64,000 bases of DNA from Marsupella aquatica (taxonomy: Eukaryota > Plantae > Marchantiophyta). Location of the stretch: positions 7,216,234 through 7,280,233 of the forward strand of contig OZ316894.1 of assembly GCA_973895155.1 (NCBI GenBank). Reading direction: 5' to 3'. The notes beneath the pieces were generated by a model. The model saw only the letters and a program-made list of their open reading frames with translations. It searched no databases and had not been told where the DNA came from. The translations under genes were made by a program, and so were the position numbers. Below are positions 1 through 52,700 of this stretch, piece after piece; the first letter of the stretch is position 1; every line of letters starts with the position of its first letter.

Positions 1-2823
1 TCATCTAGGCGGAATGCCAATACCGTCGGCAAGATTGCGCTCTCCCGTGTATGATTTGGTTTTAAAAGGTTGGCAAGATAGACCTCGCCAGCGGCTCTTC
101 AACACCTGCTGAACTCTGAATCAATTGCTAGCGTAGGAGGAACCTCCACTACTTTCCCCCAATTAGTATTTGTCGGGAAATTCACCGCATCCTTGGTGCA
201 ATAGTAGTCTTCAATAAGGGACTTCAGTTTCCGCACGATCTTCACATCTTTGGCCAACTCCTCTATAGATGGCATGTCTGATTTATTAGAGGCATCTTTC
301 TCACCATCAAAACAACCATCAACTCACCATCAAAACAACGAAACATGGCAACAGTAATTGCTTTTTCAGACTTCTCATTTCCTTCTACCCCAGCTCCATC
401 GGGAAGTTTCCCATCCAACCACAATTGGCATACCAAACTCCATAACTCAAAAAGAGCATCGTCCGCAAACAGTAACCAGTAAACATTTTGACAATCTTTC
501 CTTCCCATGGTCATTCTTGCAAGAGCCAACCAATCCTACAATTGCAAAGGAAAGTCTGTTAGTTCTCCATAACTCAATTGTTTGATAGCACTCAGGTGCG
601 GATTGAGACCATCCCAGTCCAACACAGAACTAGACAGTATCAGTGGAAATATTCTATTGAATGTGCATGATTTAGTTTGGACTGGGACCATCCCAGTCCA
701 GAACAAAACTAGACAGTATCAGTGGAAAAATAATCTATTGAATGTGTATGAATCCATTTGGACTGGGACCATCCAGTCCAACGCAAAACTAGGCGATATC
801 AGTGGAAATATTCTACTGAATGTGCATGAATCCATTTGGATTGGGACCATCCCAGTCCAACACAAAACTAGACGATATCAATGGACAAAGATTCTACTGA
901 ATGTGCATGAATCCATTTGGACTGGGACCATCCCAGTCCAACGCAAAACTAGGCCATATCAGTGGAAATATTCTACTGAATGTGCATGAATCTACGGTAT
1001 TGTACCCATCAAGCAGTAACACTTCGTACCTGAAATTTTTGATTGTCTTGAGCGTTTGTTTTGTTGTCCCCATGTTTTGGCCGGCTAGGTCTTCCACAAT
1101 CCACAAATTGTCGCCTAGCATGAACGACTATATCTTTGAAGCATGACTGAAACACCATCGTGCTATTGATCGCATTAGATCACATTGAATGCTCAACTAA
1201 TATTGACGATGGTGTTTGATGAGATAATATTCTTGACTTTCAAAATTCCAGCTTTTTCGCCAATGCTGTCAGCTTGGCATCCTTGTTTGCCCATTCTCGA
1301 ATCCATCTGGCTACTCTAGCCAAATGTTGACCGCTAATGGCAAGGAATTGAACCTTGCCCTTTTTCACGGCTGCTACAAAGTCCCTCCTATCTGATTCTG
1401 TGTTGTCATACTGCATTAGGTTTCTATGTTTTGTAGTGTAAGGAATCAAGTCTGCTATGTGTGGTTCATGCCCCAGATTTCTTATCATGGAATTGGCCAC
1501 CTCCTTTACATGGTCTGCATTCAACATTCTTTAACAGAGTCTTGCCGACGCAGGGAAAATACTGTCTATAGGAATAAAAAATATTGAATTGATCCCAAAC
1601 GTATAATATTGCTCCATTTGTTGCAATACCTCATTACCTTCTAAGACCTTCTTCTCCTCAGGAGCGTCCAACTGCTCGTCCACATCTTGTGAATGCACTG
1701 TTAGGTTTTCTGTAGTGTCATCCATGATGGCACTGTCAATTTTCTGCTTCTTCTTCTATCTTGGTCTCTTTTCACTTGCACTCGGCTTCTCAACCGAACG
1801 TTTCTTCTCAACTAGCTTCTCAACTTGGCTTCTCGTACTCGGCTTCTCAACTGGCTTCTCAACTAGCTTCTCAACTCGGCTTCTCGTACTCGGCTTCTCA
1901 ACCGGAAGTTTCTTCTCAACCGGAGGTTTCCTTTGGCTTTGTTTTCATTTTCCCACTGCTCCTTGAGAGGTCGCTGCTGTAGTTCCCGCGGTCTCTGTTG
2001 TAGGTTCTGGAGCTTTCTCTGGCGCTTGCTCGGGCACAGGGTTTGTATTCACCGCTGGAAGCTTTCTCGTCTTGGACAAAGATTCTATCCATTGCTTTGC
2101 TTTGACTAAATCAAACTTGGGAGCAAATGCAACATCCTTATCAATTAAAACACCAGGCTCCTCTGACTCCAACGATAACAATCCAACTTTCTCAAGTAAA
2201 TTGCTTAACGTCCAGGTAGTTGCAAAAGAAAAATTGCCTTGGTGCTTCATCATGTTGAGTTTCAAATATTGAAACCCATACACAATGTCGACTGGAAGCA
2301 TACCAGTTACCCCGACGACCAACTTCTTTGTGTCATAGGTCTTTGGAAAAAATCCCATTGACAAAACGCTCAATTCCCCACTTGCGTGTCATTCGACATT
2401 GAATTCAGAGGAGTATGCCTTTGACAGAAGGTTAACTTTAACGCAACAGGACTTATCATGCATCTCGAGAATGACCGTATTCATCCCTCTCCCTCCAATG
2501 CCAACAGAGACCACAGGTCCGCAAACAAAAGTCAGGCTATCATTTCCTCTGCACTTTAAGGTCAAAACAGGTTCAATCGTGGTTGATGGCACTTCATTAT
2601 TAAGCGGGGTTCTTGAGAACTCAAGCCCCCATCGAAAGCGTGGGGATCTCTCATCTAGTAAGAATCCATCCAGGCAATGGGTCGATGCAATCGCGGGTTT
2701 GAAAACAACAAGATCGCTCCCTGCATCATAAACGTCATCCATGTTAGACTTAAAACCTTTAAAACATTTGAATAACTCTTGTTGGATTAGGATGGTCCTA
2801 GTCCAACTTTGGATTGGGATCAT
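1..2823 (-). pseudogene. ParB/Srx-like-domain protein gene (homologue of the copy-2 ParB + methyltransferase-like gene), disrupted, continues off the window edge
   Basis: ORF pieces 2389..2823, 1945..2373, 1531..1725, 1240..1527 (KVQFLAISGQH), 263..529. Near the edge AGEVYLANLLK matches AGEVWISNLLK in 34565..35449. Probable intron at about 600-1025. Several stops and frameshifts. Confidence 0.7.
600..991. repeat. ~80-bp tandem repeat (about 5 units), each carrying the palindrome GGACTGGGA-NNN-TCCCAGTCC
   Basis: cccagtcc-type cores recur near 612, 692, 772, 852 and 932. Perfect palindromes at 679-699 and 919-939. Lies in the inferred intron. Confidence 0.9.
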
Positions 2824-2912
2824 CCAAGTCCAAGTTTGGATTTGGATGGTCCGAGTCCAAGTTTGGATTGGGATGGTCCCAGTCCAAGTTTGGACTCGGA
2901 TGGTCCCAGTCC
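2779..2912. repeat. 27-bp tandem array (21-bp palindrome + 6-bp linker), about 5 units
   Basis: Repeated ggattgggatggtcccagtccaagttt-type units. Confidence 0.9.
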
Positions 2913-3124
2913 TCTAAGACTTAGGGAGGATAGGTGATGGATACTTACTAGGGACTTGTGATTGAAATTGTCTGGAGTCTTCGAGTGCCAGTTCCACACT
3001 GTCGCTCATAGAGGAGAGGTCAAACTCCTTCGTTTCTTCCACGTAGGACATCACAAGGACGCGATTCGCTTCCATCTTTCTAACACGTGGCGTCTTAGCA
3101 GGCGTCCGATCTAGGGCAATAAAA

Positions 3125-3352
3125 AAGAATGGAGGTGGAAGGCAAAAGGCAAAAGGCAGAGGCAGACGGAGGCGGGGAGGCGGAGAGAGAACGGAGAACG
3201 GAGAGCAGAGAGCAAGGAGAGCGAGAGGAGAGAGCAAGGAGAGCGAGAGGAGAGAGCAAGGAGAGCGAGAGGAGAGTGAGAGAGTGAGGAGGAGAGCGAG
3301 AGGAGAGCGAGAGAGCAAGAGAGCGAGGAGTGAGAGAATGAGAATGAGAATG
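3125..3352. repeat. GA-rich low-complexity repeat between the divergent genes
   Basis: gagagcgagaggaga-type units. Copy 2 has similar GA/CT tracts at about 48843-48900 and 49216-49270. Confidence 0.8.
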
Positions 3353-4174
3353 AGGTCCTGGTTGGACCTCTCCGTCCCTTTACCCCCTCTTGCCTCACCC
3401 CGGCCTGTGTACAGCCGGTTGCCTCCTTCTATTGCGTACGGCCTGCTCCTGCATACGGCCCGTTGCCCTCACCTTGCATACGGCCTCCTTCGTTGATGTC
3501 ATGCCTACCTAACAGCCTTCCATGGTAGTCCCCGCGCAATTAGGCTCGTGAAGATAAGGTGTGTCCGCAAGCTAAGGTGAACGCGTACTCAACCCTTATC
3601 TTCACTCAATTTCCGGTTGAGCCGACTCGAGTGAAGGGTATAATTTGGGAGACGCCCACTTCGGAGCTCATTCTTGTTCTAGTTTCCCAAATCTAAGCTC
3701 CATGTAATCCGGAGTGGAGTTTCTCTTAAAGTGTTATGTATTGAGCCACTTACCTTCATTGGGTCAGCTTAGCCAGCTTCTTGACTTTTGGAGTCCTCTC
3801 AGTTTATCTTTTACAGACATGTGTGGTTTAGGGTTCAGTTCTTTTTTACTCCCAAGATTTAGTGGCATATAGCTTGTATTTCAAGCATCTGGGAAGTTTT
3901 TACCATTATTCAAACAACAATGTATACCCCTTGGATGTGATATTCATCTTCTACCAGATCTTAATACTAAGGTGAGTATAAGGTTAATGCATTCAAATAT
4001 AAGGTTCCATTATTTCATGAAACTGTATGTAGACATTAGGGTCTGCCTTAAGACCACGCAAACTTTAGGCTACACCATATCTAGGGAGATCCGTAAAATA
4101 TGGGGTCTTCCTAAATTTGGATTTTTCTTAGCTTCAGATGTTTGAAGTTTATCTCCCATTACATCATGGGTTGG

Positions 4175-4895
4175 TCTAGGATGGTCCTAGTCCAAGTTTG
4201 GATTAGGATCATTCGAGTCCAACTTTGCATTGGGATCATTTGAGTCCAACTTTGGATTGGGATCATACGAGTCCAAGTTTGAACTTGGATGGTCCAAGTC
4301 CTAGTTTGGATTGGGATGGCCCCAGTCCAACTTTGGATTGGGATCATCCGAGTCCAAGTTTGAACTTGGATGGTCCGAGTCCTAGTTTGGACTTGGATGG
4401 TCTAAGTCCTAGTTTGGATTGGGATGGTCCGAGTCCAAGTTTGGATTGGGATGGTCCGAGTCCTAGTTTGGATTGGGATGGTCCGAGTCCTAGTTTGGAT
4501 TGGGATGGTCCTAGTCCAACCTTGGACTGGGATGGTCCCAGTCCAAATCCAGAATCGGAGGATCGTAGTCCAAATCCAGACTCAAAGGATTGCAGTCCAA
4601 ATCTGGACTTGGAAGGTCCCGGTCCAAATCCGGACTCGGATGGTCCCAGTCCAAATCCAGAATCGGAGGATTGTAGTCCAAATCCAGACTCGGAGGATTG
4701 CAGTCCAAATCCAAACTTGGATGGTCCCGGTCCAAATCCGGACTCGGATGGTCCCTAGCCAAATCCAGAATCGGAGGATCGTAGTCCAAATCCAGACTCG
4801 GAGGATTGCAGTCCTAATCCAGACTTGGATGGTCCCGGTCCAAATCCGGACTCGGATGGTCCTAGTCCAAATCCAAAATTGGAGGATAGTAGTGT
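4175..4895. repeat. 27-bp tandem array whose right half forms a 108-bp (4x27) higher-order repeat
   Basis: Translates as PSLDWDGPS repeats, then as a four-unit cycle (PNPESEDRS PNPDSKDCS PNLDLEGPG PNPDSDGPS). Perfect palindrome at 4524-4544. Confidence 0.9.
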
Positions 4896-4940
4896 GAATC
4901 AAAATTTGCATGAGTTTGGTTTTAATCCATTTTTTTCAGT

Positions 4941-6310
4941 GTGCAGGATAATAGAAAAAGGATGTCTCAAAGGTTTTCTAGGGGCAATGATGTTACCTTG
5001 ACAATCAATGGTTACGACGTTGGAAATGGGACAGTTCAAAAGACAGATCCACGAGAGAGTGTTCAAAATATTGTGCTGGGAGAGAATCGAATTGGGGTTC
5101 TCATTGAGAAGGCCTTTGGTGAGACTAGGAAGCTCCCTTTTCCAATGCCTAGGGAAGAAAATCTTCATGATGCCATTGACTCATGTGTCATTTGGGATAT
5201 GTCATGTGCATATCGATCTGCGGATAAGATTACTCAAAAACGCATCAATATTGGTAGTTGTTCGACTCGAAAAGATAACAACATCCATAATTTTGCAAAT
5301 GTAGAGGAGGATGCTTCGACCACCCTAAGGCCAGGCGATGAGGTTGAAATGTTTATCTCTGGCCATTGTGTGGCCTTTGGAGTTGTTTTCAAGACCGATC
5401 CAATGGAGAGATGTCATAACATATTACTCGGTGAGTCTCGGGTTAGTGTAAAAGTCACAGATGTGATTCATGGTAGTAAGACTTTACCTTACGCACATGG
5501 TGGAGCTGCAACAATTGAAGAGGCAAAGGGCTCCTGGGTTCTATGGGATGTGGTTGACGTCCACAATAAAGTATGGAATGTTGATATTGATGGGAGCAAC
5601 AAATCTTCCTCTAAGAAGCAGAAGGACAAGGCAAATTTTGTTTCACAGTCTTGTTTGGCGAACACCACGGACACTAAGTGTGACTATTTTCATCAGGAAA
5701 ACTGGATGTCAGAGTTGGTTGAACTCTACACTGGTTTGGATCGAACCAAAATGGTTGCCACTGGAACGATCACTGTCCCTCAAGTGACAACAGCAGTTGA
5801 TGATGAAATTCTTGGTGATGACCATGTTGGGATTGAGTGAAAGATGTTGTGGCAGCACAATACTTTCCCAACATCCACAAGGGAGTAGTGAGTTTGATTC
5901 GATGGCGGATTGATTCAACAAACCTAGTTGCAAATGGAAAATTTTTGTTAGACATTTTGGTGGAAGGTTCTGAAATGGACTCAATGGATAGGGATGAACT
6001 CAATGCGGATGTAAGTGATAGAGGAGTACTGCGTTCAAGGCCGTACAATTTTAACAAGAGGAATCAAGTAGATCCGAATGAAAAGAAGAGGAGGTTGTTG
6101 GAAACCAAGGCAATTTCAAAAACAACAGAGGCGTCAATTGATGACGTGAAAAGAGAAAATTGTTGCAAGCAAAAATGTTGTCTCATTATGCCAAGGGAAA
6201 ACATCGAAGATATTAGGATGAAATTTCATGGGATGTCAAGCGAGTCAAAAACGTCACACATTTTCAACCTCTTCCACTATAGAGAGGATGATGTTCGTGA
6301 TAAGGGACAC
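4941..6310 (+). pseudogene. N-terminal part of transposase-like protein (three Tnp1/En/Spm-like repeats + Cys-rich CCxxxCC region), truncated
   Basis: Three repeats of a V.G.V..TDP......LG..R..V.......LP.P.......A....V.W-like unit (third degenerate). RPYNF and ENCCKQKCC match 50899..51417. Frameshift near 5840. Confidence 0.7.
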
Positions 6311-6928
6311 TGTGAGATAAGGATGTTTATAAAAGAAGGGTTAACTAACCATAAATTTTAGAATTTTTACGTTTAAGATCTCAAATGAGGCTGAAGAGGG
6401 ACCTGAAGACTACTTTGAAGTGTTATGAGACTTTCAAGCTGATCTGAGGTCAACCCGGATTGATATTAGAGAAGGAGGATCGACCCGAAACTTTTTACTA
6501 TAAGCCTGGAATGAGATATAAAGCTTATACCGAGACTCTACTCAACAACAGCTATCCATTGCCAAAGTTTTTAAAACCATAAGTCAAACACAGGCACGAC
6601 CACAACAGAATCCAGATATAAGGAAGGAGAGTCGATCCGGCCTCTCACACCTCTCAAAGCCAAACTTAGTAGGTTTTGAGCTCCCAAGCGCATTAGGCTG
6701 TTTAAGTAGTAGAGTGAGGAGGCTCTACCCTTTTGGTAGAGGATCTTGGGTCCGGATTATAGGACCAATCTTGCATTGCATGATGAGAGCCTGGATATGA
6801 GGGAACTGACTGATTCGTTGTGAGGGGAATGCCTACTCCACCGCTGGAAGTGAAGGCAGGAAGTTTGAGATCCTGATAGTGGATACATCGGTTGTGAGAA
6901 GGGAAGCCAGGTCGACCCGGACATCACA
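6311..6928. mobile_element. Solo-LTR-like sequence (TGTGAGAT...ACATCACA), no matching TSD
   Basis: Starts exactly where homology of the transposase ORF ends. TG..CA ends. Flanks gacac/attgc differ and belong to different elements. Confidence 0.45.
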
Positions 6929-7826
6929 ATTGCAGGCCCGATTGAGTCCAGATTTTCCCCACGTTAGATGACCCTGCATTGTGGTTGACGAAATCCTAAA
7001 CCCTAGCACACCAGGAGACCAGGAGGATGATGATGAGGATGATGACGATGATGAGGATGAGCCAGATGGGGAGGAGCAGCAGGCACCACCACCACCCCCC
7101 TCCCGTCCAGCTCGTCCCGCCCAAAGCAAGAAGGACAAGGGGAAGAGGCCAGCAAAGAGGAGTAGGCGGGCTCCATTCTAGAGGATGCAGATGTAGTTCA
7201 CTCCATATGGCATATGGATTAGTCAAAGGATAGTGTCTTGGTATTTGATACCCCATAGGGTTTTAGAAAACCCTAATTTTTGTACATTCAGGGATTTTTG
7301 GCATATATAAAGTTTTGCTTTGGTATCTTCATGTGGAGCAATAAGACCCCAACCCAATTATGAACCCAAATATACAAAACCCAGCCCTCAAACTATCCTT
7401 GCGAAACACATGCAAACGCCATACTATCGCAAACTTGCCATACATTGAGTATTGGAACATTGCGATACTTTTGGTTCCGCAATTGTGCGACACCCTGACT
7501 GACGCAGTTATGCGATACCATATGAATGGCAACAGAATTGTCAAGACAACAGCTTTGCAAATAAGTTATAGTTCAGAGCGCATCGCAAACCGATAAAGAG
7601 TCTATCGAGATCGCATAAATGTGATTTATGTGCGATAAAATAAGTTTTGTAGTGTGCGAAGGTGTTGCGAAGGGGTTGTGAAAGTCCGATTGCAAAGCTG
7701 TGGGTTTCAAAGAATGCGAAAAGGTTGCGATGCGTAGCGTTTCGCAAACGCCGGAATTTCATAATTTGGTCCTTTGTTAGTTGCGATGGGACGGGGTTCG
7801 CAAAAGGGGTCGGTAGTGTTGTAGTG
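6929..7826 (+). mobile_element. Terminal fragment of a CACTA element (family of 35931-46811)
   Basis: Ends TAGTGTTGTAGTG at 7826, as at 46811. Dense TCGCAA/TTGCGA subterminal motifs at 7400-7805. Acidic last exon 6981..7181 ends KRSRRAPF. Confidence 0.8.
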
Positions 7827-8400
7827 GCTGAAGATTGAAGGCATGATACAATTTCTTGAGCAGAGGCCACAGTATTTCTGGAAAGAATGTATCATCCGTG
7901 GAGTGATGCAAAAATGAGGAAGGAAACAACCCACAATTCTCTGGATTTGCAAACGCCTTCATTGGAGTGTCATCAAGAAGGAGTGTATTAGTTTCATCGT
8001 ATAATCCACCATAACGTTTCCAAACAACCCTCAAATCCTTCAAATGAATATTTGCCTTTCCATCGGTAATGTCAGGCCTCTGGATTCCAGTATTGAATGT
8101 ATCTTCTTGTGTGAGAATAAACTTGAATTGCTCTTGCTCTTCTTGACTGAAGATCAAATGAATCATTTCATCCATCCTGGGTTTCCTTGCACAAGTCCAA
8201 ATGGCAACATCAAATAACAAAAAAGCTGCGATAAAGAACTCGTGAAGATGGGGTCGCTCAACATACATAAAGTTAAACCATCCATGTCTCCCTCAGTGGA
8301 CACCCTTGACACTTGTCGCACTACGGCGCAGTCCGGAACTTGGCGTTTTGACAGAATCCCAACACATTTTGTTGAGGTCAAGAATCAATAGCTTCCGTCT
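7827..8400 (-). pseudogene. FCP1/NIF (HAD-family) phosphatase-homology domain
   Basis: RRKLLILDLN at about 8370-8400 (frameshifted), then RPHLHEF..AF..FDVAIWT, LKDL..VW and NTLLLDDTP.K...NP.N in ORF 7777..8268. 3' end cut by the CACTA end at 7826. Confidence 0.8.
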
Positions 8401-8850
8401 GATCGGACCGTGAAGTGGAGGCAAGGGTCCTGCAAAGAAGGAACACCAATGTTAGAATTGTGGGAGATAAAACAGAGGAATGCTGGAGACGATCTCGAGC
8501 ATCACAAGTGAATGAACAACAGTCAACATCATACCTATTGTTGGTTGAAGGTCAGTAGTTGAAGAAATCTCAGGACATCTTTGGGGATTATTGTCGACGC
8601 ACTCCACAACTGATAAGGGTCCGCCTATTTTTGTGAAGGTAGACATAATAATTTAGACGGCTGAATTGCAGGACTGTTCAAACTAACTTGGGTTTCAACC
8701 TCACGTGCTGAAAGACCCAAATTCATCTAGAAGGTTATCTCCTAGTTGGTTTTGGATGTCCAAATTTATCCCTCCGGGAAGGGTCTCAACAAGAGCTGGC
8801 TTAGACCAAACTAGCACTAATTTGAGCTTATCCTTCCTATACTTTCTAGA

Positions 8851-9291
8851 TCAAATAATCTTCTCAGACTGCTCTATACTAACTTGTTGACCTTTTGACG
8901 GTCCATCAGTCCAAACATAATGAGTAGCACTTGCTTTGAGTGATTTGTAACCAGTTCTACCGATTTCAGTCCCCGGTTTGCTAACAAAAGGGAGAATTAC
9001 GGGGCTTCCAGTAGAAGAATCTGTGAAAACAAGCTTATTCTCTGAAGCGCAAAACATTTGGTCCAAGGGAGAGGACGATGCACCTGCCTCGTCCTGAGGG
9101 GGAGTATGGCAGCGACTAGCTTTCTTAGTAGAGAGAATCTCATCCAGTTGAGGAGGGCTTGGAATTGGTTGGCTAACTGCGTCTTGCAAGGTGGATTCCC
9201 AGCCAACATCCAAGGTTGAAGACTGTTGTTCACGTTGTGCGTCCCCAAGTGTCAAGCGGTTGACATTGGGTCTTGACACCAAAGCTGTCAC
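8851..9291 (-). pseudogene. Ser/Pro-rich ORF, probably a linker exon upstream of the FCP1-like domain
   Basis: 146-aa ORF on the same strand, between the MTase-like and FCP1-like regions after removing insertions. No recognisable motif. Confidence 0.3.
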
Positions 9292-10312
9292 TATTGGGTG
9301 CCAAAACTATCTCCTTGTACCTGAGGATCACGGAGGGATGTTGTGAAGGCTGGTATACACCGGTTTATCCCCTTAACGTTAGACTATCATAGCAAGACTC
9401 TGTCACACATCACCCAAGCTCAATCCCAAAGGACTAAGGTTGGGAATCAGCTCTTGCACTCATGATAGTTCTGGTGAGAAGGGGTCTTCATGTCGGGCCC
9501 GTACACACAGGGCCTAGCACTAGTACATTTTAGGGCCATTTACCGATATTTACACCATCGGACGCCTTCGGGAAAATGCGACGCCATTTTTGAGGTTTCC
9601 GATTCTAACTGCATCGCTCCGTCTGATACTCCCAGAATCGGATATGGACCATCGGACCTGTTTCAGACCACCCGATACCAATACTATCGGACATTGCATA
9701 TCTCCTGCAATCGGATACATTAGGTGTCCGATGTCACAAGAGCCGGAAGAAGCCTCTCCTTGCACTAGGTGAAGATCTATCGTCCGACAGTTGTCCGTAT
9801 GAACTTGCAAGGGATATTGCGTTAAAATTCCCATTGGGCATTGCGATGGTGGAATAAACGGATGTTCCGATAGTTTTGGTATGGGAATTTGACATATAAT
9901 TGGTATCGGAACATACGAAACGGAGGGATTCGGAAGCAATGGAGGGGTGCGATAGGAGAAGTATCGGAAGATTACTCGGGAAAGACCTAGCTTCATTGCA
10001 ACATTTGGTTTCTTGTGGGGATTTTTTCTGTTGGGGTTGAGGGTGGTTCTTGGGGGAATTTATGCAATACAACATAGAGGGATTTGTTGAAGATGTTGAA
10101 GAGGTTATTTGAAAGACAATGCCAATAGAAGTAATTAACACAAGAAGGATATATGGCCACAAAGGGTACTCAAACTCCAAAAGGGAAACATACCCCAAAA
10201 TGTACAAGAGTGATCCAAGTACTAGGATCACAAAAGTAAGCACATCCAACTCCTAATCTCGTCTAAGTCTAAGGCTACACAGTATGTCTCTATCTATCTA
10301 AGCTAGTCTAAG

Positions 10313-16153: not shown

Positions 16154-16367
16154 GGCAGACATATATGTATATATACCACCTTTTTGTTTAACATAAAATA
16201 CATGATACAGGTTTTCAAACTAAATTGGTTAGTTGTGTAAGTCAATCTTTGATCAAGGTTTGAAAGTATACTAGTAGAATGTGTAAAGAGAATTGTCTAT
16301 ACCTTTAAACACTTGTCTCATTGCATGTGGCCCTTCTAATATAATATGTATGTTTGTGAAATGTTAG

Positions 16368-33483: not shown

Positions 33484-34109
33484 GAGCCCAAACCCGAGCT
33501 TACCTATAATTATGCTAACCCGGGCCCGAGGTCAGGCTAACCCAAACTTGGGCTAAGCCTAAGCTGAAGCCGGGCTGACCTAAGCTAAGCTGTGGCCAAG
33601 CTTAGGTTAACCCGAAACTGAAGCCAAACCTGCTAATTCCGATCACACATTAACCCGACACACTAATCAGGCCGTATCTTTCTTAATACACCTCTGTTCC
33701 CAAGTGTTTTATATCAATTTTACTCGCCTTGACCAGATCTTTCCAATGCTCTTTATAGATCCGGATTTGGCGACACATTGAAAGAGATACGGTCGCCGAC
33801 CACCTGCGACATAGTTTTTATTTCCCTACTCTTAACGCCATGATTGCCCTTATTCTTGCCATCTCGCTGATCGTTCTACAGTCTCACAGTTACTTACTGT
33901 GCACAACATACCAATTCCATCGTATTATTGAATAAGGACCATGTCACCGGCGTCACACCAAGGCCACCCGATGAAGGAACACCTGGAAGGTCGAGATCAT
34001 CTCGAGCATCATTTCCAAATTCAGGCAGTATTTCACCCTCCTCTTCCATGTAGCTTGGGATTTTCGGGCCCTCCATTTTGCGATGCTCTAAATTCTCCGC
34101 AAATACTTC

Positions 34110-35449
34110 CTAAAAAACACTGGCTTCCACCGGAGCTATGTCTGAGGCTGCCTCTTCTATAACAACGAGGAGACCGACAGTAATTTCCTGAGATGCTAAC
34201 GACTCTTTGGGTGGCACATATAAAACTTGCTTGTTGTCATGGAGGAGCTTAGCAAAGGCTTTTGTGAATTCCATCTCTTGAGCTGTGTCCAAATACACAA
34301 AACAATCCCGACCAAGAATGACACAAGCTTTCAATGTCTGTCCTCCAGAGAAGAAATCCAACACTATGTGACTTGGGCAGGAGAAATAATCAACAAGACG
34401 CTTTGTCATTTGCAAAGGCTTTGCTCTCGGATTTACAAAGCCACCCCGCCGACCGACCATCTCATAAGATGGGGCCATCTTCTCCAAAACTTTGACATCA
34501 ACAGTAGATTCATCGAGCTTATCTTTCCCCTTTGATTGGTCTTTGTTGTTCCCAGTAGGGGCCTTCAAACCAAGATTGTGAAGTCTTTGTCCCACTTCTC
34601 ACTGTAGTTCCAAAATGCATAAAAGTCATCAAAGAAAATTTGGGACCAGTCTGGTTCCTCTTCACAATAAATTCCCCCAAAGATGATTGAGTCTTGGGCT
34701 CCAATGAGAAAATCTCCCTCCTCCTTGGGCAGCTGATCACGGTAGAAGCTCCCGTACTCCAGCTTCGTGTGGACTTTCTTCTCACGAAAAATATTTCCAA
34801 AGGCACTTTGAATCTGGCCTATCAATGGGCCTTGACGGACAAAAAAGATTACCAAGAGCTCCGTCAAGTTTGCCATCTGTAAACAATACTCCAGCAAGAC
34901 AAAAAATTTGGCATCTGTCCACTGCCGTTGTTGAAGACGACCAAAATTGACAATGGAAAGTGGGCACGTCCTTTGCACCGAGTCAACAATCTCTTGCTTC
35001 ATTGTCCTCATCAAATTATCGCTAAAAAATGTGCGATAAGGAGTATCCTCCATTGAAGGCATCCCACCAAATAACTTGCAATATATCTGCTCAAGCCTAA
35101 CAATGAGACTTTGCGGAAATGGGTCTTTTGGCCTATTTCTTTTTAGGAGGTTGGAAATCCAAACCTCTCCAGCAAGTTGTCTAAGTTTGGGCAACTCACC
35201 ACAATCCATAAATGCAGGCAAATATTGAGTTAGCTCAAACCAAGTGAGTGAATCGGCAAACCGATCCGGATACTTCAAAACGAAGTACTCCACAATTTTT
35301 TCCCTCAGCTTGGTCATGACTTTGAAAGTATGAGCCATATCACTCATTGATTTGAACATCAGATTTGTTGGCTCGAGACGATCTTGAGGTAGAATTAAGG
35401 AACTATGTTGAAATTTATCGGAGAATACATGAAGATAAATCAAATACAT
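34110..35449 (-). pseudogene. N4/N6 DNA-methyltransferase-like fold (beta-class order), catalytic motif not recognisable
   Basis: NPRAKPLQMTKRLVDYFSCPSHIVLDFFSGGQTLKACVILGR resembles the motif X-I-II block of amino-MTases (KP..L..RL....S.....VLDPF.GSG.T..A...LGR). No DPPY/SPPY/NPPY seen; LSIVNFGR sits where it might be expected. Frameshift near 34580. Confidence 0.65.
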
Positions 35450-35477
35450 AAACTTGACCTCAAGGCTCGAGACAATC

Positions 35478-35930
35478 TCAAGCTAGAAGTGGATTTGAGT
35501 TTGAATATACCTGGAACTTTTGATGATCCATGAGTGTATTGGACCCAATCATGGGTCTCTCTGGATGGCCACACTTGTCAAACTGTCGATGGGCATGGAC
35601 CATAGTATCAAGAAAACAAGACTCATACTCCATGGTCTTATTAACAACATTTGCCCTTTGTGAGTGTTGAGCAAGTATTGTTCTTGGAGTTTTGTCCGAA
35701 AGAATTCGTGACAATTTGCGACCTCCTTCAACTTTGCATTGCTCTTAGCCCAACCTATGATCCAAACAACTGCCTTTGCCGAGTGTTGTCCACTAATTGC
35801 AAGGAATTGCACCTTCTTATTCTTAACACCCCACTCAAACTCCTTTCGATCCTCAGGATTATTCTCATAATGGAGCAACTGCGAACTCTCTCTTGAATAT
35901 GGAATTAAATCCGCCATAGCTAGTACCATT
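35478..35930 (-). pseudogene. ParB/Srx-like domain portion of the same gene
   Basis: KVQFLAISGQHSAKAV, an (I/V)xG(N/Q)H-type motif. Joins ...KSIVRNPG (46815) across CACTA-2. Colinear with 1240..1527. Confidence 0.65.
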
Positions 35931-40200: not shown

Positions 40201-40682
40201 AACACATTCTCCGAGGGTAACATCAAGTCATGACAATATTCAAATATGTCTGATAACATAGAATTGCTTGTCTTGTGTTTAGCTTGAATGTTCAAGAGCC
40301 CCAATATGGCAGAAAGACGGCTCAACCGAGCACCCTCAAAAATAGGTGTTCGAGCATGTTCCTCTGCCTCTTTCCATTGTTGTTGTCCCTCTGGAGTATG
40401 TTGTGGCCGTGGGTCATTTGAAGGGCCAACCTCATGACCAATGTGAGGCACATCATCCTCAACATCGGCACCAAACCAATCAACCATGAAGTCATCCATG
40501 GCTCTATCTTGATCATGCATGACCTGGTCATCAGTCCGAGGTGCGGCTTCCTCATCAGCACCACCTACATCATTACTTGATGAGGAATCACCCTCTGATG
40601 GTTCTCCCTCTTCTGGCATACCCATCTCCCGATATGTTGCTCTCAACCTTCGTGGTAACATTTGTTGAGATGGTTGCGCATT
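37286..40682 (-). pseudogene. CACTA TnpD/Tnp2-type transposase, nearly intact
   Basis: ORFs 39486..40661, 37939..39393, 37607..37819, 37286..37564. Predicted introns 39405-39505 and 37773-37942. One lesion near 37607. Confidence 0.95.
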
Positions 40683-40893
40683 CTATGCACATTACAACCA
40701 AAAAACCTCCTCATGTATATTTGACCAAGTACAACAAATTAAAATAGACTTAACACCATTCATTCAAGACATTAAGAATTAAAGTAAATGCATGGGCTAA
40801 AACCTTATTACTCCAAAATGAGCCCAAAGGCCATATATATAATAGTAAATGGGAAGTCCAAAATAGGTGCAAGAGGATAAAGGACATGATTTC

Positions 40894-41724: not shown

Positions 41725-41833
41725 CTATTCCATGCAAACACCCACAAACAACCAAATGTGTAAACCATGTGTAAACATTGATTCACCTCTAAAAATAACA
41801 GTAAAGAACGGCAATCAATTGAAACAAACTTAC

Positions 41834-42047
41834 CATATGGGATGAAGAAGCCCCGGGAGTAAGACCTCTATCTCTCAATATGTTGAGCACACACATAAGA
41901 TTTTTGAGAAATTTGGCCCACACATCTGGTGCAGTCACAAAGTCTTCGGGGTGGACCACGAGGACCAGTAACCTCGGGCTGAGGAGGAGGGGTTATATCG
42001 TCATCAGAGGAGTACTCACTACTGGATAGTTCAGAGGAAGAGGACAT
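41834..42047 (-). pseudogene. First coding exon of the CACTA-2 transposase/SET unit
   Basis: MSSSSELSSS...LCDCTRCVG...HIER, then a small frameshifting deletion. Donor ATG|GTAAGT at 41834/41833. Confidence 0.65.
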
Positions 42048-42149
42048 ATCCACTGCCACATTACATTGCATGTAGGGCATGATTAGGAAAAATTAGGCCA
42101 TATATAAAGCGATTTTTAAAAAAATGAACTCAAAAAACAATTAGGTTGG

Positions 42150-43220
42150 TTTATACATGGGGTTTTATTACCCTTTTATATTTGTTAGCATGAAACCCAA
42201 ATTAAGGTGAGTGTCATGCAAGAAGAAACCACATTATAACCTTTGGGAAAATTGTAATACCCTATGTCCTAAGTGAGGTTAGATTATTACCTGAATGAGA
42301 CCCGGGCTCAACAGTGCCTATAGGTCACGTGGCTTTTGGAACATTTGCCAAATCTAGAAGTAGGAGGAAAATACTGGAAACAAAATGTAAGTTTGGATGG
42401 TAATTAGCAGCCATCAAGTTGTGGAATCTTAGACATTTACCCACATATATCATGGCACAACAAAGAAGGGCAAGCATAAAAATCTGTACTAACAACATTG
42501 ACTGTATACATGATGTTATACCTTTTAGATGCCCGGGTTCCCACAATGCATATGCATTAGACAAAAGTTGAGGTAGTAGTGTTGGCCCTGCGTTGTATCA
42601 TGATTACATGGGTTTTCCCCTCAATTGTTAGCATAAAACCCTAAACCCTAAACCCTTATCCCCCCTCGAGTGAAAGGTGAGTGTCATGCAATAAAAACCC
42701 ACCCTAGACCCCTGGGAAAACTCTAAAGGCCTAAGCCCAGAATGAAGTTGGACAATAATTACCTGAATGAGATCCGGACTCAATAGTGCCTGTAGGTCGT
42801 GTGGCTCATTGAACATGAGCTGAATCTAGAAGCACGAGGAAAATACTGGAAACAAAAAAGTAAGTTTGGATAGCCATTAGCTTCTCTCAAGTTGTAGACC
42901 CCCAAACATGTGCATATAGATATTCTTGCACAACAAAGAAGGGCAAGGTTTATGAACAATCTCTTTATCAAACCCTGCTAACATACATGTTTAAATATAC
43001 CTTTTAGATGTCCGGGTTCCCACAATGCATATGCATTAGACAAAAGTTGAGGAAGCAGTGATGGTCCTGCACTGGATCATGATTACATGGGATTTCCCTC
43101 AATTGTTAGCATAAAAACCAAAACCTCATCCCGCTTCAAGTGAAAGGTGAGTGTCATGCAATAAAAACCCACCATAGACCCTTGGGAACTCTAAAAGCGT
43201 AAGCCAATGAAGTTAGCAAA
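42150..43220. repeat. 470-bp tandem repeat, about 2.3 copies
   Basis: ggtgagtgtcatgca at 42206, 42676 and 43146, with long flanking similarity. Confidence 0.85.
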
Positions 43221-43927
43221 AACCTAAATGGTCAATTCCCTTCAACCATCCTATGCTTCTCTCTACCATAATTATATGCCACCCCTCTTGGTTACCCTCC
43301 TAAGATACCATAAAAGTAACCCAAGATACTATAAAACTGAAACCTCTCTTTCAAACCCTCCTAAGTTGGCCTAAACCCCAAAACCCAAAACATAAAACCC
43401 CTCCTAGCTCTTACCCTCCAATACATATAACCCCAACCTTCATAAATAAAACCCCCCTGCAAACCCAAAACATAAAACCCCTCGTATCTAAGCCAATCTA
43501 AGCCCAACCTTCACAAAAGAAACCCTCCCCTAACCAGGCCAAACCCCCTCCTCTTACCCTGCAATATAACTCCAATTTTCTAACCCCCCCAATCCTTATC
43601 TCATCACATCCCACTAAAATGCAACATAATCCTCTACATCTACCCCATTTAATGTTCATAAGCCCCCTTAGTATCCCTAACAACACATCAAATACACATG
43701 CGAGACGGGGGTTATGGCAAAACCAAATAGCGAAGGCTTTTGCGAATCTTGAAGCTTCGCAAAGATAGAATTTGCGAAGCTTTTTGCGAAGGCCGATGCA
43801 TCGCAAACTGCGATGCGAAACGAATCGCAAAGCCCAATATTTTGAATCCTTATGGATTGCCGAGCGCGGACAAGGCGGATTCAGTTCATTCAGGCTTGAG
43901 GAGAGCAACGAGGGCAAGGGTGGAGCG

Positions 43928-46024
43928 ATGGCGAGCGAAGAGGGGACTGGTGGTGATGGAGGAGCTTCTGGCAGCAGCGGAGGCAACCGAGGGGGGGGGA
44001 TCGATTGAAGGCGATTGTGGATGAGCATTTTTCGGTTGCACAGTTGAGTCAAATTGATTTCACCAGTCCAGCAGGGCTGGCATCATTGAGTGCCCTTCTG
44101 GGCCAAGCCTTGCAAGCAGGTCTCACTGCAGGGCAAGCAGCAGTGGAGGAGGATGCAAGGAAGGCAGCAGAGCAGGCGGCTGCTGAGAGGAAGCGAAAGA
44201 GGGACGAGAGAGCTCAGGCTGGAGTGCTCTCACCTCAAGCATTGGAAAAGAAGAGGAGGAAAGATGAGAGAGACCTGATCAGGAAATAGAGGGAGGAGCA
44301 AAGAAAGAAGGAGGCAGCAAGGAGGAAGCTGCCTCTGATTACTTTAGAGGATGAGGGGATTCCCACTGAGCTTGCTTACAATGGGGCCAAGAGCACAATC
44401 AGGCACATTGTATCCACAAATTTTGCAAGAGGAGTCGAGTGGGGCACTCGCTCAAAGGCAGAGCAGAAGCGAGTCATCAATCAGGTGAAAGATGCATTTC
44501 GAAATGGAGGAGAGATGGATTCACAGTGGCTTGCTGACAAAATTTCAAACTCCATGTCACAAGCTAGATACCATGATAGAATGAAGATCAGGTCTCACCT
44601 TAGAGATTTGGAGGAGTATAGGAATTTGCAGAGGTTGCTGCAATTCTCAGAAGATATCTGGCAGGCCTTCTACCAGACAGAGGTGAAGTTGAAAGCAGCC
44701 AGGCTCCTCAATGATTTCATAGAGAAGCTGGCAAAGGCTCGAAGGGCAAAGGAGGCCGGGAAGTCTGACCGGGACCTGAAGGTGATGGAGCAGAAGGTAG
44801 CCCAGCTCCAGCAGGTTGTAGCAGAAGTAGGCGATCCACCCAACAAGTTCCTGAAGGCAGCTGAGCGAGTCCGAGACAAGCCCAACATCACCCACAGGCT
44901 GGGTCAAGGTGGCCTCCCCGGCCTCAAAGCAGCATTCGTGAGTGCACCTCCCTCTCCTCCCTTGACTTCTTGCTACTCCAATTCCTATTCCAACACACCT
45001 GCAATGAGCCAACTCTTTCTTGCATTTCCACCAAGTAGTTACAATTAGACTTGTTGTGTCAGATTAGGTCACGTACAGTTGCTTCCCTCTCGGGTTTTTG
45101 CCATGACAGAGTTTGCGATACATTTGCGATGCGGGTAGCTTCGCAAATCCTTCGCAAACCTTATTATGCCCTTTTTTTGCTTACGTTTGCGAAGGCGTTG
45201 CGAAGACGTTGGCTTCGCAACCAGCTTCACAAACGTAATTGTCCTTATGATTGCGAAGCTGGCGCCTTCGCAAAATTTCAAAAATTTGAATTTTTAAATT
45301 TTCCGATCGTTTAAGTGTTCTTTGAGGGTCTTCCCCATATATGCCACCCTCCATAACCCCAAAACCTTGATGCACCACACCACCAGCCCCAACAAACCCC
45401 CTAATTTTTAGAAGCCATGTGAATCGGGTTATGGGTTGGTGTTAACCCAATTGTGCTGGTTTTGTTTTGGCTTAGTACAAGAGGTACAAGAGGAAGATTA
45501 CGGCGGCTGAGATGGAGGTGGGCCAGAAACATGGGAAGGAGCATCTCTTTCAGCAAGTTGATGAATTATTGGTGAGAATTTTTAGGTTATTACATTCATT
45601 GCAATTTTGAATGAATATCTCTTTTGTTCACACTTGTAAAGAATATGAGACTAACAGACACTCTGGTTTGCTAATGGAAGCAGGGAGGGGAGGATGGTGA
45701 CTCCCATACCGAGGGTGGCACCGATAGTAGTGATGAGGATGTGGAGGGGACAGGGGAGGGGAGCACAGCTCCTGCTACTCAAGCCAGGCCAACTAGCACT
45801 GGAGACTAGTCATTTGCATTAGCACGTTCCAGTGGTGCTGGGGGTGGTAGCGTGGCAAGCCAGGGCGGTGGAGGTGGGGATGAGGATGAGGATGAGGATG
45901 AGGGTGACCCCGAGGGTGACCAAGAGGAGGAGGAAGTCCAGGTTGCACCCCCCCAAGAGCACACAAGGGCAAGGAGAAGGCCAAGGGGAAGAAGGCAAGG
46001 AGGGGCAGGAACACTCCTTTCTAG
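43928..46024 (+). pseudogene. CACTA-2 accessory (TnpA/ORF2-like) multi-exon gene
   Basis: MASEEGTGG..., LSPQALEK, ITHRLGQGG..LKAAF|GTGAG and an acidic last exon ending KKARRGRNTPF*. Colinear with 10313-14033. Confidence 0.65.
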
Positions 46025-46811
46025 CTCGATGTAGACAAGTTGTAGCTAGAGCACTTACATCGAGTTCACATGTATAGCGATCAGCATGCATGGCCGTGGC
46101 ACTTTACCTAAGGGTTTTTACCCTTCCATTTTGAACTTTTGTACTTTTTCAGTAATGCCATTTTAATTGCGGTAGACTGGGTCAACATCACTTTCCTCCC
46201 TCCTTCAAAACCCATGAATGGTCTCCCTCACCCTCACCCTAACCCAAATACACAAAAACCCATGAAATATACATTTTGCGAAGCTTTTGAGAACCAACCC
46301 CCATCTCAAAGAGCCACGGTGAACGTATCGCAACCATTCCGAGGAGAAACATATCGCAACACTTGCGATGTTGTCTAAATCACAACCCTAGCAAAGACTT
46401 CCTCTCCACACGTTTGCGAGTTAAATGCCTTCGCAACAAAGCGGTCATCCGCTTCTCGCAATCTTACGAGTTTGTTTGCATCGCAAGTTATAGAGAAATT
46501 TAACATCGGAAATTGCGATGTAAATGTTATCGCAACGCGAGCGATTCATTTGTTCTTGCAAAATAATGAAATTTGTCGTTTCTTAAAATTTGCAAGGACA
46601 GTGCCGTCGCAACATTGCGGAGATGTTGCGACGTATTTAGAATCGCAAGTTGCGAAGTAGTTGCGAAGGGCCGTTTGCGAAGAATTTGAGATGGGAAGTA
46701 GCGAAGACGTTGCGATGCGAGTAAGTTCGCAAATTGGGTATTTCGGATTTTGTTTCCTTTGTATGATGCGAAGGGTGGTGGTTCGCAAAAGAGGTGCATA
46801 GTGTTGTAGTG

Positions 46812-47908: not shown

Positions 47909-49777
47909 ATAGGAGGCTCGAGATGATCTCTATCTTCCTTCATTTTTAGGACAGTTGAGTCGACAGTTTTATGCACTATAGTCTGACATGTTCCAATGCC
48001 ACATCTCATCCGGGGAATTTAAAAGAGATTTCAACCCCAAGAAATCTAAAAAGAGAACACAATAGTCAGGAACTACAAGAGGCTCGAGATGATCTCGAGC
48101 CACCATCTGTTTAAAAGAAAAAGACAAGGGCTCAAGATGATCTCGATCCTCAGATATATCAATTGAGGTTTTATTCCATTGCATATCATAAATCAGTCAA
48201 AAATGATCCAATGTCACCTATTCGACCACATTCAAAACCCTCTAACTCAATGGTTTGTCATCTTCACAAACGAGTTGGAGGACTAAGAAAGTGGTCCAAA
48301 AGGCAATCTTGGATCACATTGGATAGGATATTAGTAATTGAAGTAGATGACATGGAGTCCTTCCAACTGGAAGAAATCGGCCAAGGGATACGAATGAACT
48401 TAATGGAAGATGGTGATGAATATATTTGGCTCGAGACAATCTCAAGCCTAACATCTCAAACGAGTGATCCGAATATCATATTCAACAATGAACATCATAT
48501 TCAATCAATGATTAAAATCCACTTTCTCCATTGACTTCTCATACCCACAAACCCGTTTGGATGTCAATGATCATAACAAGTTGGAGGGTAGAGAAGTCCC
48601 TGGAGGAAGGAAATTTTAGATATTTTGGATATGATGTTCACTTTTGAATTATAAGAGCTTGAAGAAATCTGACTAGGTAACATGCAGGAAATGCATATTG
48701 GCTCGAGACAATCTCGAGCCTAATGCCACTTACATCAAATGCAAAATCAATTGATAGCACAAACTTTTGAAGCAAAGTAATGCAGAAAACATCACTTAGC
48801 TCGAGATGATCTAGGAGAATTATAAGAGCGCGAAAAAATCTAGAGGCAAGAGGACTCAAGGAGGCAAGGGATGCGAGGAGGCGAGGGAGGCGAGGAGGCG
48901 AATGTGCAAATGGGGAGTTCAAACCCCCTGAAGCCACTATAAGCCCCTCGGGGTCGGCCTTGAGGGCCGTGCCAAGCGTGCCACGGGCTCGTGCAGGCTG
49001 CCACGCAACCAGCTGGGTGCGTACAATCATTATTACGGTCACACGTGTTGTCATTATTGTTATCCATACTTCAGCCCTACCGCGAGTTTAGCCGTGCCAC
49101 AAGTTCAGCCAAGCTGTCTGATTGGCCTTTTTGTCAGTCAGGATTTTATATATTGCTTCTCTTTGCTCTCCAGCGGGTCATTCTTCTCATTTCGTTTCAC
49201 TATTCGCTTGTTGCTCCCTCTGCCTCTCTCTGCTCTCTCTCTCCCTCTCCCTCTCCCTCTCTTTGGCTCTAGATTTCTGCTCTGATCTCTTTCTATCGTT
49301 CTTTTTAAGGGTTGTGGACTCTGCGTTTGTGTTTAGGATACGTCGAGACATTATCATTTTAAGCTCTGAAGGAGGTCTAAAATAATTGAGCTCCTATCTT
49401 TTAGAAAACCAAACCTTTTCAACTTATACTAATGTTGGTCAAAATCCATTTGGAAGCCTTTTCCCTCTATTTGATGACCTTTTAGAAGCTATTTCTCAGT
49501 GTCTGGAAGTAAATTGGGAGCCTACTTTCTTAATTGCACCAAATCATACCTCTAGATCATCTAGAGCCATTTATATGTTCTTATTTTGGGTGGCTTATTA
49601 TTCATAATAGTATCTTTGTCAAATACAGTGTCTTTTTTGGCTCGAGATCATCTCGAGTCATAAGTTTGATCCTCAAAATTATTAACTTTTGCCTTCTAGC
49701 TAATCGTGCATTCGGTTGTCCTTCTTCTAATTGGGTTTGTAGATAGTCGGAGGTATAGAATCTGAATTCACTATTTA

Positions 49778-52700
49778 GTGAGATTTCATATTCTACCTCA
49801 AGATCGTTTTAAGCTAAATACTTCTGAATTTTTACATATTGGTGTTTTTGGTCCCTCTTCTACCTCGAGATTGTCTCAAGGTAGAAGAGTTTCTTATTTT
49901 CTCTATCACACAGTTTTGTGGGATAAACTTCTACACTTGGGTTTTTTGGTTTGCTTTTGTAGTCACTTTACTTCGAGATCATCTCGAGGTAGCTACATCC
50001 AATGGTTTGGACCACGTTTTCAAAATGGGGATTTTCTTTTGAGGGGACGAGGTTTGCCTTGTATCAACGGAGTGGAAGTTGCTTGCGAGACCGTCCTCAA
50101 GGTTGATCCGGGTGACTCAGTGTGTAATGTTGATTTGGGAAGTAATCGTATTCGAGTTCTCATTGAGAAGTGCTATGAGGGATCATGGGAAATTCCTTAC
50201 CCTTTGCCGCCGATCAGGACCCTGTTTGATGCTGTCAACTCCTGCATTATTTGGGATGCCTCTTTTGCATATTTGAAGTCACAGTCAACTCCAGCAACAA
50301 CACAAATGGATGCCTCTTGTTCTACAAAGGATACGGTTCTCGGTTTTGTACCAGAAAAATCTTTGGTGGGAAGTTTGGGAGACTCGATTATATCCAGCAA
50401 TGAAGTCGAGCTCTGGATCGGCAATCAGATTGTGGCTCGTGGATTTGTATTCAAGACGAATCCCAATGAGACCTGTCACAATGAAAGACTTGGCACTTCT
50501 AGGATTAGTGTAAAAATATGTGAAGTTTTTCAAGGAAGGGAGAGGTTACCCTTTCCTCACGCTGGAGCCGATACCGTTCAGGAAGCATTTCACACTTTTG
50601 TATTCTGGACTTTAAAGGATGTTACTCGGAGGAGTTCTTCCCAGGATATACTAAACGACCTGTCCACACGGGATGTTTTTGGAAATTATAATTTCAAGGA
50701 TTATAGTTTGCGTTCTAATTGGATGACCAAGGAGGTGGAATTGTATGCTGAGGATAATCGAACCAAAGTGGGGGTTGGCATCATCACAGTTCCTTTCGAG
50801 TCACATGCAATTGATGATGAGGTTCTTGGGCCAGATCACGTTGGGGTTGCGGTCACACGCGTGATTGACCCCCTATTTTTCCCAAATATCTCCCAGGAGT
50901 GCCTGGTCTTGTTAGGTGGGCCGTCCGTTCACTTTTGCTGATATCAAGGGGTATTTTTCTTCTGGATCTCATTGAAGAGGTTTCTCCGAAACCAATTATT
51001 GATGGTCGAGATCATCTAGAGGTAGATATGAAAGGTGACACTGAGTTTTCAAAGCGCCCGTATAATTTCATCAAGAGAACGAAGGTTAACCTAGATGAAA
51101 AAAGGAAGAAGCACTTGGAGTCTCGGGCGATACTGAAAATCACAGAGGAGGAAATTGACTCCATCCAAAGAGAAGGTTGTTGTAAGTTGAAGTGTTGCCT
51201 CAACATGCCGAGAGAAGACCTACAGGCGATAAGGAGGGAATACCATGGGATGTCAAGCGACAACAAAACCAGTCACATTCTCACTCTTTTTGGCTGTAGG
51301 GAGAAGGAAGTGGAGACAAAAGGATATTTTGTTGTAAGAAGTAGACTTGTTTGCAAGGGTGCATTTATTAAAATGCATGGATTCAGCACTGCCAAGTATT
51401 ATGATTACAAAAATTAATATGAAGCAGGTTGCACCATTGGATTCCACGGAAACAAGGGTTCACACAAGACACGGGGAAGCACCTGGCACACTCGTGCTTT
51501 GTTGGAGTCCATTATAACCCAAAACAGAGAACCCATGCCGCATCTTCCCTATGGAGGGTCTCATGGTACTGACACGGTTGAGTACAGACTTCCATCTTGT
51601 TTCACGAAGAAAAAGATTTTTGAGGAGGTATACTCAAAAATGGAATTAGATGGCTACGTGAAGGTGAGTGAAAACACTATGTATAAACTCTGGAGTGAGT
51701 CCTTCATGAATTTTGACTTTCACAAGGGAAGTGCATTTCCAAAGTGTACACTTTGCACTAAGTTCAAAGATCAGTTGATGCGGGAGAAGAGAAAGAAAGA
51801 GCGTTTAGAGATTGAGGAAAGAAGAGCTCGCCATCTTCGTGAGCAAATGTCTAGGAGATATGTTTACTATGCTCATAGGGTTCTTGCGAAGAAGGATCCT
51901 GAGAACTATCTTTGCATTATACATGACAAGATGGACCAAGCCAAGACATGGATCCCTAGCTAGGTTGGTCCCCACTCCTAAATCATTGTCTGGTAGTGGT
52001 CAACCGCTCCCCATTGCACTCACTGGGATGTTGACCCATGAAAGGGATCCCGGAGTGTATGCTCACTTCAGTTTCACTGGGCTTTGGCCGGGAGATGCAG
52101 ACTTCATAGTGATTCATTGGCCAAGTGCCTTAGAGATCTGGAGGATTACAAGGGGGGAAAATCTGGAGACCTCCTTGAAGGATTATATTGGGCTGCAACG
52201 AGGCCAAATTTTCAATCTCTTTCGGACTTTGAAGCATTTCTCGCAGGTTACTTAGAACCCAAAAAAGTCTCAATTGCTAGATTTCAAGGAGCTAAAGATG
52301 ACCAAGATCTTGGGTTATCAAATGTGGTGGATGACGACTTTGGTGTTGATCCCAAGGCTACATCTACCTCTTTCAAACCATTGCCAAGGCACCTGACCTT
52401 GCAAATGGATAATTCAGGGAAAGATAACAAAACCAGTACGTGTGGCATTTTGCAGTGAGCTTGTTAGTAGAGGGGTTTTTGAAACAGTGCAGATGTCGTT
52501 TCTCATGGTTGGTCACACCCATGAGGATGTCGATGCATTGTTTTTGAAAGTATCCAACCAAGTGAAGTACAAGGAGGTTTCTACCCTCTTGGGGTTGATG
52601 GCTGAGATTTGGGAGTGTGAAAGCATTCATCCTGTCCCACGGTTGATCCAAGAGGTTGCAGCTTACAAAGAGTTTTTGAAAACTTTCAAGGTAAAAGACA

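Follow-up and report, generated by a model that had tools for sequence, protein, structure and literature searches.

Two copies of a transposon in the liverwort Marsupella aquatica carry many 21-bp palindromes, which raises the question of which protein recognises these sites and with what effect. The copies lie in a 64-kb stretch of contig OZ316894.1 (positions 7,216,234 to 7,280,233), here called the window. The host of the sites is a DNA transposon with a DUF7869 transposase and a divergent accessory gene for a ParB-like/beta-class methyltransferase (MTase)-like protein. In both copies the transposase is encoded on the plus strand and the accessory gene on the minus strand. The palindromes are confined to the element and differ by family; within the element they surround the presumed promoter and are also found in introns and tolerant coding linkers. 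They are real and probably functional, and it is highly likely that they serve as binding sites of some protein encoded by the element. With a probability of about 0.5, we regard them as family-specific candidate binding sites for a dimeric transposon-encoded protein, most likely the divergent accessory protein, which would bind its sites and not methylate them.

The number of sites was compared with an order-4 Markov model of the window. The five perfect 21-bp sites of the first-pass annotation were recovered exactly, at 679, 919 and 4524 in copy 1 (GGACTGGGA-N3-TCCCAGTCC) and at 48081 and 48700 in copy 2 (GGCTCGAGA-N3-TCTCGAGCC), and the copy-2 variants that it had listed were all present, starting within 0-3 bp. 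With up to 4 mismatches over the arms there were 30 matches to the copy-1 motif, where 0.15 would be expected per 64 kb, and 11 to the copy-2 motif, where 0.25 would be expected. All 30 copy-1 matches were located within 1-6360. The copy-2 core CTCGAGA-N3-TCTCGAG, searched with up to 2 mismatches, had 14 matches, all of them within the 11.2 kb of copy-2 segments, and neither this core nor the copy-1 motif matched anywhere in the remaining 46.5 kb of the window. Repeated palindromic sites in cis, as known from ParB-parS systems, are thus present in the window. The spacer was not free, as had been proposed, and was constrained to TCA, TTG or TCG in copy 2, a T-Y-R pattern, and to TGG or TCA in copy 1. 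The proposed shared consensus GGNYYGRGA-N3-TCYCRRNCC matched exactly at only 9 sites, of which 6 belong to copy 1 and 3 to copy 2, and is not a useful descriptor. Short XhoI- or Dam-like targets (CTCGAG, GATC) were rejected as the meaning of the motif, being absent from copy 1 and from other clades.

The two copies differ in how the sites are arranged. A spread through both copies had been suggested; this holds for the dispersed sites of copy 2, whereas the copy-1 sites all lie in three tandem arrays, which are minisatellites with units of ~80 bp and 27 bp, and therefore are not independent. The placement at the putative promoter region and in the putative intron after the ParB-like exon was found as described, and additional sites were located in coding linkers (33988, 51003) and 3' of a gene (8481). 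The outlying copy-2 sites at 8481, 33988, 35370 and 35464 are explained by the nested insertions that broke up this copy. For the 16 copy-2 sites the motif had a pairwise identity of 0.74, compared with 0.27-0.32, the background level, for the flanks; the motif value is inflated by the selection of the sites, and the flank values are the informative part. The ~80-bp unit of copy 1 (600-992) also holds a second 9-3-9 palindrome, TCAGTGGAA-ATA-TTCTACTGA.

Further copies of the family were assembled as contigs from five public runs (X1, X2, X5, X6 and X7), which showed that the family is multi-copy. The majority differences at 48444, 49800, 49808, 49811 and 49878 all shift the window sites toward the palindrome. 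With the family reads, the site at 48428 was restored and one more decayed site came to light at 49795. Both spacer variants found in the contigs keep to T-Y-R. The background flanks of the dispersed copies and the restoration of decayed sites support the idea that the sites are sequence- and family-specific.

Relatives of the transposase were then scanned in metagenomes, which returned 32 loci, several of them duplicates. A quick maximum-likelihood tree was computed from 21 of the loci together with copy 2 and with 6 proteins; copy 1 was too short to be included. The palindrome variants follow the clades of the transposase tree, and cross-matching between them was almost nil. The locus L014 is the sister of copy 2 (58% transposase identity, SH-aLRT 98) and contains two copies of GGATCGAGA-N3-TCTCGATCC, both within an in-frame variable loop. 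Compared with copy 2, this motif is changed at one position in each of its two arms; compared with GGATTGGGA, the left arm common in copy 1, it is changed at two. The palindrome GCTCAAAC-N4-GTTTGAGC was common to all four of L015, L016, L018 and L021, and L013 had 10 copies of TTTGGCCA-N2-TGGCCAAA. In L020, 7 copies of GTCGGCTG-C-CCGCCGAC were located in coding loops, an intron and the 3' region, with an identity of 0.90 in the motif and 0.24-0.30 in the flanks. An AT-rich clade showed ATYTGGTGG-CCACCARAT, where the best motif occurred 4-5 times compared to 1-2 times in shuffles (five loci tested). No motif was detected in L031, nor in L012, L017, L019 and L022, loci with little or no upstream DNA. 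Since kin share the motif labels, the pattern indicates inheritance with change and not co-evolution with a protein.

The orientation of the copy-2 spacers could point to a role of the palindromes as RNA or single-strand hairpins, for example in splicing, transcript handling or RNA-protein binding. At 15 of the 16 sites the spacer orientation follows the sense of the enclosing gene (nominal p 5e-4, a post hoc value from non-independent sites). The sites fold with z scores of -2.3 to -6.4, as any palindrome would, and several overlap AG or GT. However, the primary sequence is kept beyond pairing across unrelated flanks, the orientation is opposite in the L014 sites and in the copy-1 array at 2784, the AT-rich motif has no spacer, and the L020 motif has a fixed unpaired asymmetry. 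We consider the hairpin explanation very improbable.

Because the motifs follow the transposase tree and occur in relatives without a detectable accessory gene, the transposase itself might bind the sites, for self-activation or for assembly along the long element, and the accessory gene would then be incidental. A precedent is the AtMu1 transposase, which alone activates cognate copies (bioRxiv 10.64898/2026.08.24.746577). Against this, the sites are internal and not terminal, with none in 60341-61850, the N-terminal beta-barrel repeats of the transposase resemble chromatin readers more than sequence readers, and the AT-rich clade has an upstream decayed divergent remnant resembling an open reading frame (ORF). 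This remnant had no match to the accessory family or to Pfam. Binding by the transposase is therefore a tentative alternative that we judge rather unlikely.

The transposase had 10 homologues, five of them annotated in Riccia sorocarpa. Its matches to RNase H-like folds were weak, none reaching E<=0.001, and so were those to Transposase_23 (E 0.04-0.22). The search of its profile against PDB sequences gave nothing meaningful, and a scan with its alignment yielded no members of the family from contigs of viruses or prokaryote genomes. In models of the N-terminal repeats (window 50030-50870; P0003 27-231), tandem beta-barrels were obtained that match Agenet/Tudor readers of methylated histone H3 lysine 9 and KOW domains weakly (E 0.005-0.1). 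DUF7869 was not mentioned in the literature searched; we take it to be linked to Sola, a group with DDD transposases. Sola transposons have terminal inverted repeats and a 4-bp target duplication (PMC10741241), and a search for these features by comparing 6300-8750 with 60700-61900 found no element ends. Downstream of the copy-2 transposase, the region 61115-61570 contains the perfect palindrome ATGGGATAC-GCC-GTATCCCAT and three ATGGGATCCA-type palindromes, which are possibly subterminal repeats.

The accessory protein was searched against 1.84 billion representative sequences, which gave 31 relatives, and a homologue is annotated in the liverwort Calypogeia fissa. Two pieces of the gene searched against longer proteins had no homologues, and scans with the alignment found no family member in viral contigs, where only ordinary phage MTases were hit, or in metagenome contigs. 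Pfam and family scans gave no match that would relate the protein to VANC or TnpA. The predicted structure of P0044, the longest family member, matched PvuII, RsrI and CcrM in Foldseek (E 4.5e-7 to 5e-6). A beta-class fold with the S-adenosylmethionine-binding motif I was indicated by Foldseek, by Pfam PF01555 and by hhalign (97% over the C-terminal half), and the FxGxG-like DFFSGG is kept in most family members that extend to it. The catalytic motif IV, [DNS]PP[YFW], was found in 0 of 36 family proteins, whereas DPPY or DPPF was present in 8 of 8 phage MTases checked. After the strand that is assigned to motif IV by the predicted topology, 27 of the 36 have D/E-F/L-x-x instead; the position of motif IV was deduced from this topology, since the hhalign profile alignment covered the C-terminal half only and did not reach it. 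In copy 2, DFFSGG is retained and VNFGR stands where DPPY would be expected. By its sequence, the MTase-like domain looks catalytically degenerate in this family.

An active ParB-methyltransferase that loads at or targets the sites and writes N4-methylcytosine or N6-methyladenine, marking the element as self, would agree with the beta-class fold (E about 1e-6), with the DFFSGG kept in most members and with the conserved aspartate at the motif-IV position. Self-modification has been proposed for an Ectocarpus protein (PMC12477816). The absence of a DPPY-type motif from all 36 family proteins makes methylation at the sites, as the first-pass annotation had it, doubtful. In addition, the clades have no short core in common and the ParB-like segment has GQH[SL] in 3/3 sequences. 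We therefore regard an active enzyme as improbable. An activity like that of MpDN4MT1 was rejected, as MpDN4MT1 has TSPPY (bioRxiv 10.1101/2021.02.12.428880) and the accessory family does not.

The ParB-like segment had DUF3723 (0.97) and then ParB_N (0.91) as the leads in the language-model Atlas. Its predicted model had a predicted local distance difference test score (pLDDT) below 50. The CTP-binding arginine patch of ParB is GxxR, and the three sequences have GQHS, GQHL and GQHS at this place. The ParB-like region of P0044 (50-300) resembles fungal DUF3723 (Atlas 0.97), a Starship auxiliary family (PMC11162782), which gives a hint that DUF3723 could be a ParB-like self-binding accessory. 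A ParB-MTase fusion that has lost both enzyme signatures and recognises a palindrome specific to its family might be a bacterial ParB-parS module rebuilt in a land-plant transposon, loading at many internal sites and coating the whole element. The coat would keep the element unsilenced or compact for transposition, and site and protein would co-diverge across a broad transposon clade. We hold this further step to be unlikely.

In the reading that we prefer, a dimer of the accessory protein, predicted to bind rather than to methylate, would dock on the palindromes. Once bound, the protein would label copies of its own element, so that these are activated or protected from silencing. Since binding would benefit the element, sites could arise and persist as isolated motifs, as in copy 2, or as amplified tandem repeats, as in copy 1. 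Protein and site would drift together, and each family would address mainly its own copies, as has been shown for VANC and TnpA.

Several observations weigh against binding by the accessory protein. Searches of Pfam, PHROGs and NCBIfam did not confirm the ParB homology, nor did hhalign (probability 0.5%). No motif was detected in L023, L030, L034/35, L036/37 and L042. The accessory gene was undetected in 32 of 32 relative loci, the palindrome-bearing ones and 10-kb flanks included, among which most contigs are short, the long ones are decayed and long flanks exist only in decayed AT-rich loci. Within the 27-bp arrays of copy 1, conservation of the palindrome does not exceed that of the rest of the unit (identity 0.81 vs 0.79/0.66 and 0.75 vs 0.72/0.95). 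Among the variable positions listed for the family contigs, 8 of 39 fall in the arms, which make up 19% of the bases, so the arms are not depleted overall; 5 of these variants are toward the consensus and 3 away from it.

The minisatellites of copy 1 with their lack of excess conservation, the undepleted arms and the local tandem duplications seen around sites in the family contigs are the observations expected if the sites were neutral by-products, such as palindrome-seeded minisatellites or micro-duplications. Binding sites of a host transcription factor would be another explanation of this kind. But in copy 2, L014 and L020 the flanks of the sites are at background level and the sites are located in coding linkers, and a host factor is not expected to change its sequence with each transposon clade. 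Neutral or host-derived sites are accordingly quite improbable.

The nested elements had been described as devoid of the motif, which is correct for the two motifs studied here. However, nested CACTA and long terminal repeat (LTR) elements have recurrent palindromes of their own. In the CACTA element at 35930-46810 the best palindrome recurs 22 times, in a second CACTA-like element (53405-60330) 10 times and in one LTR 6 times, each compared to 1-3 times in shuffles. Family-specific palindromes are therefore common here and by themselves do not point to ParB. The CACTA element at 35930-46810 contains TCGCAA, the core of the published TnpA motif CCVTCGCAAA, 52 times. Both this element and the one at 15400-18700 carry a SET-domain gene; other CACTA elements use TCCGAT. 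The LTR element at 20946-27887 is very young, with LTRs 99.86% identical over 1391 bp and a TTCTT target duplication; it has a gag domain, and no reverse transcriptase ORF was seen. A palindrome GACGCTGC-N2-GCAGCGTC lies in the LTRs and the adjacent internal region, with 15 sites in 9400-33900.

The features of the two copies are listed in the table. The CACTA insertion at 35930-46810, with an ATT target duplication, splits the copy-2 ParB-like exon, and nested insertions displaced the C-terminal domain of the accessory protein by ~24.6 kb. About 95 residues of copy 1 and the homologues are missing from copy 2 exactly between the two sites in 35370-35484, possibly by a deletion between motif copies. 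A NIF/HAD phosphatase gene (7826-8450, minus strand) lies directly downstream of the accessory gene, with the site 8481 between them; it may represent a third cargo gene, truncated at 7826 by the end of a CACTA element.

Table. Sites and coding segments of the two element copies in the window (strand given for coding segments).
Feature	Position	Strand	Remarks
Copy-1 tandem array, ~80-bp unit	600..992		Sites 600, 679, 838, 919, degenerate 760; putative intron after the ParB-like exon
Copy-1 tandem array, 27-bp unit	2782..2912		Contains 5 sites; close to the accessory gene's 5' end, probably in the first intron
Copy-1 tandem array, 27-bp unit (108-bp higher-order)	4173..4893		Upstream of the transposase ORF
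Copy-1 accessory gene: N-terminal domain, ParB-like segment, start of helical/MTase-like exon	1..3080	-	Decayed; extends beyond the window
Copy-1 transposase, N-terminal part only	4962..6340	+	Truncated
Copy-2 site	8481..8501		Just 3' of the last accessory-gene exon
Copy-2 accessory C-terminal domain	8704..9306	-	tblastn to P0012 E 7e-25; profile match
Copy-2 site	33988..34008		Low-complexity coding linker after the MTase-like domain; sole site with reverse spacer orientation
Copy-2 helical and beta-class MTase-like region	34113..35371	-	Frameshifted; Pfam N6_N4_Mtase E 8.3e-7
Copy-2 sites 35370, 35464	35370..35484		Between the ParB-like and MTase-like exons
Copy-2 ParB-like segment, second half	35536..35929	-	
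Copy-2 accessory N-terminal domain and first half of ParB-like segment	46811..47887	-	
Six dispersed copy-2 sites (47915, 48081, 48129, 48428, 48700, 48798)	47915..48818		Accessory-gene side of the putative bidirectional promoter
Five dispersed copy-2 sites (49548, 49639, 49795, 49862, 49970)	49548..49990		Transposase side of the putative promoter
Copy-2 site	51003..51023		Variable linker inside the transposase ORF
Copy-2 transposase: N-terminal beta-barrel repeats, DUF7869	50030..53403	+	Frameshifted; Pfam DUF7869 E 4.5e-25
Copy-2 transposase C-terminus after nested insertion	60355..60720	+	tblastn E 5e-22

In two recent papers on algal genomes it is speculated that ParB/methyltransferase proteins carried by transposons bind and modify the elements that encode them. 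A similar architecture and the idea of self-binding have already been published for Ectocarpus Sola1-1 and Bostrychia Plavaka; what this locus adds is the concrete motifs and their clade-wise change. The locus gives concrete candidate sites with three related variants (copy 1, copy 2 and L014), which makes the proposal directly testable. If binding is true, self-recognition of the VANC/TnpA style would be extended to a further transposon group via a protein of bacterial origin, and a rebuilt ParB-parS module would offer a natural set of orthogonal protein-DNA pairs. The literature searched contained no bryophyte case or motif description, and motifs may be described in the supplements of the two papers on algal genomes.

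The bacterial and phage ParB-parS systems and ParB-MTase fusions (PMC4738411; L001, L011) have the same order of a ParB-like part followed by a beta-class MTase, and palindromic sites. In the liverwort element, however, there is no ParA partner, no GxxR and no DPPY, and the host is a eukaryote. A similar layout is that of Sola1-1_Ec32 of Ectocarpus, a large DNA transposon in which a gene on the strand opposite to the transposase encodes a ~1100-aa ParB-like and N4/N6-MTase protein, for which self-binding and self-modification were proposed (PMC12477816). The account of Sola1-1_Ec32 consulted here, supplements aside, names no binding motif and no degenerate catalytic motif. Sola1-1_Ec32 comes from an alga, whereas the element described here is from a land plant and has homologues in the liverworts Riccia and Calypogeia; the two are likened by architecture and not by sequence. 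In Bostrychia, the ParB-like accessory of Plavaka PAG2/PAG3 adjoins tandem inverted-repeat arrays that were proposed as self-binding sites (bioRxiv 10.1101/2025.02.11.637652), and an adenine methylase is also carried. In contrast to the liverwort element, Plavaka has an EnSpm-group transposase, its ParB is fused to a 2-oxoglutarate (2OG) oxygenase, and a separate gene encodes the methylase. Its arrays adjoin one gene, whereas the sites studied here are also dispersed singly through both genes.

VANC recognises family-specific motifs of VANDAL elements that are located in introns and in intergenic and terminal non-coding regions and are amplified in tandem (PMC5735166). The liverwort sites likewise form a family-specific motif that is enriched in non-coding parts and changes with the family. 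VANDAL elements differ in being of the Mutator type with non-palindromic motifs of 8-9 bp, and for VANC both binding and demethylation have been shown. TnpA of Spm/CACTA is a regulator that binds the clustered family-specific motif CCVTCGCAAA (bioRxiv 10.64898/2026.08.24.746577). An element-encoded regulator with clustered family-specific motifs is the feature in common, and the nested CACTA in the window carries the TCGCAA core. TnpA is derived from helix-turn-helix domains of the transposase and its sites are terminal, whereas the sites of the liverwort transposon are internal.

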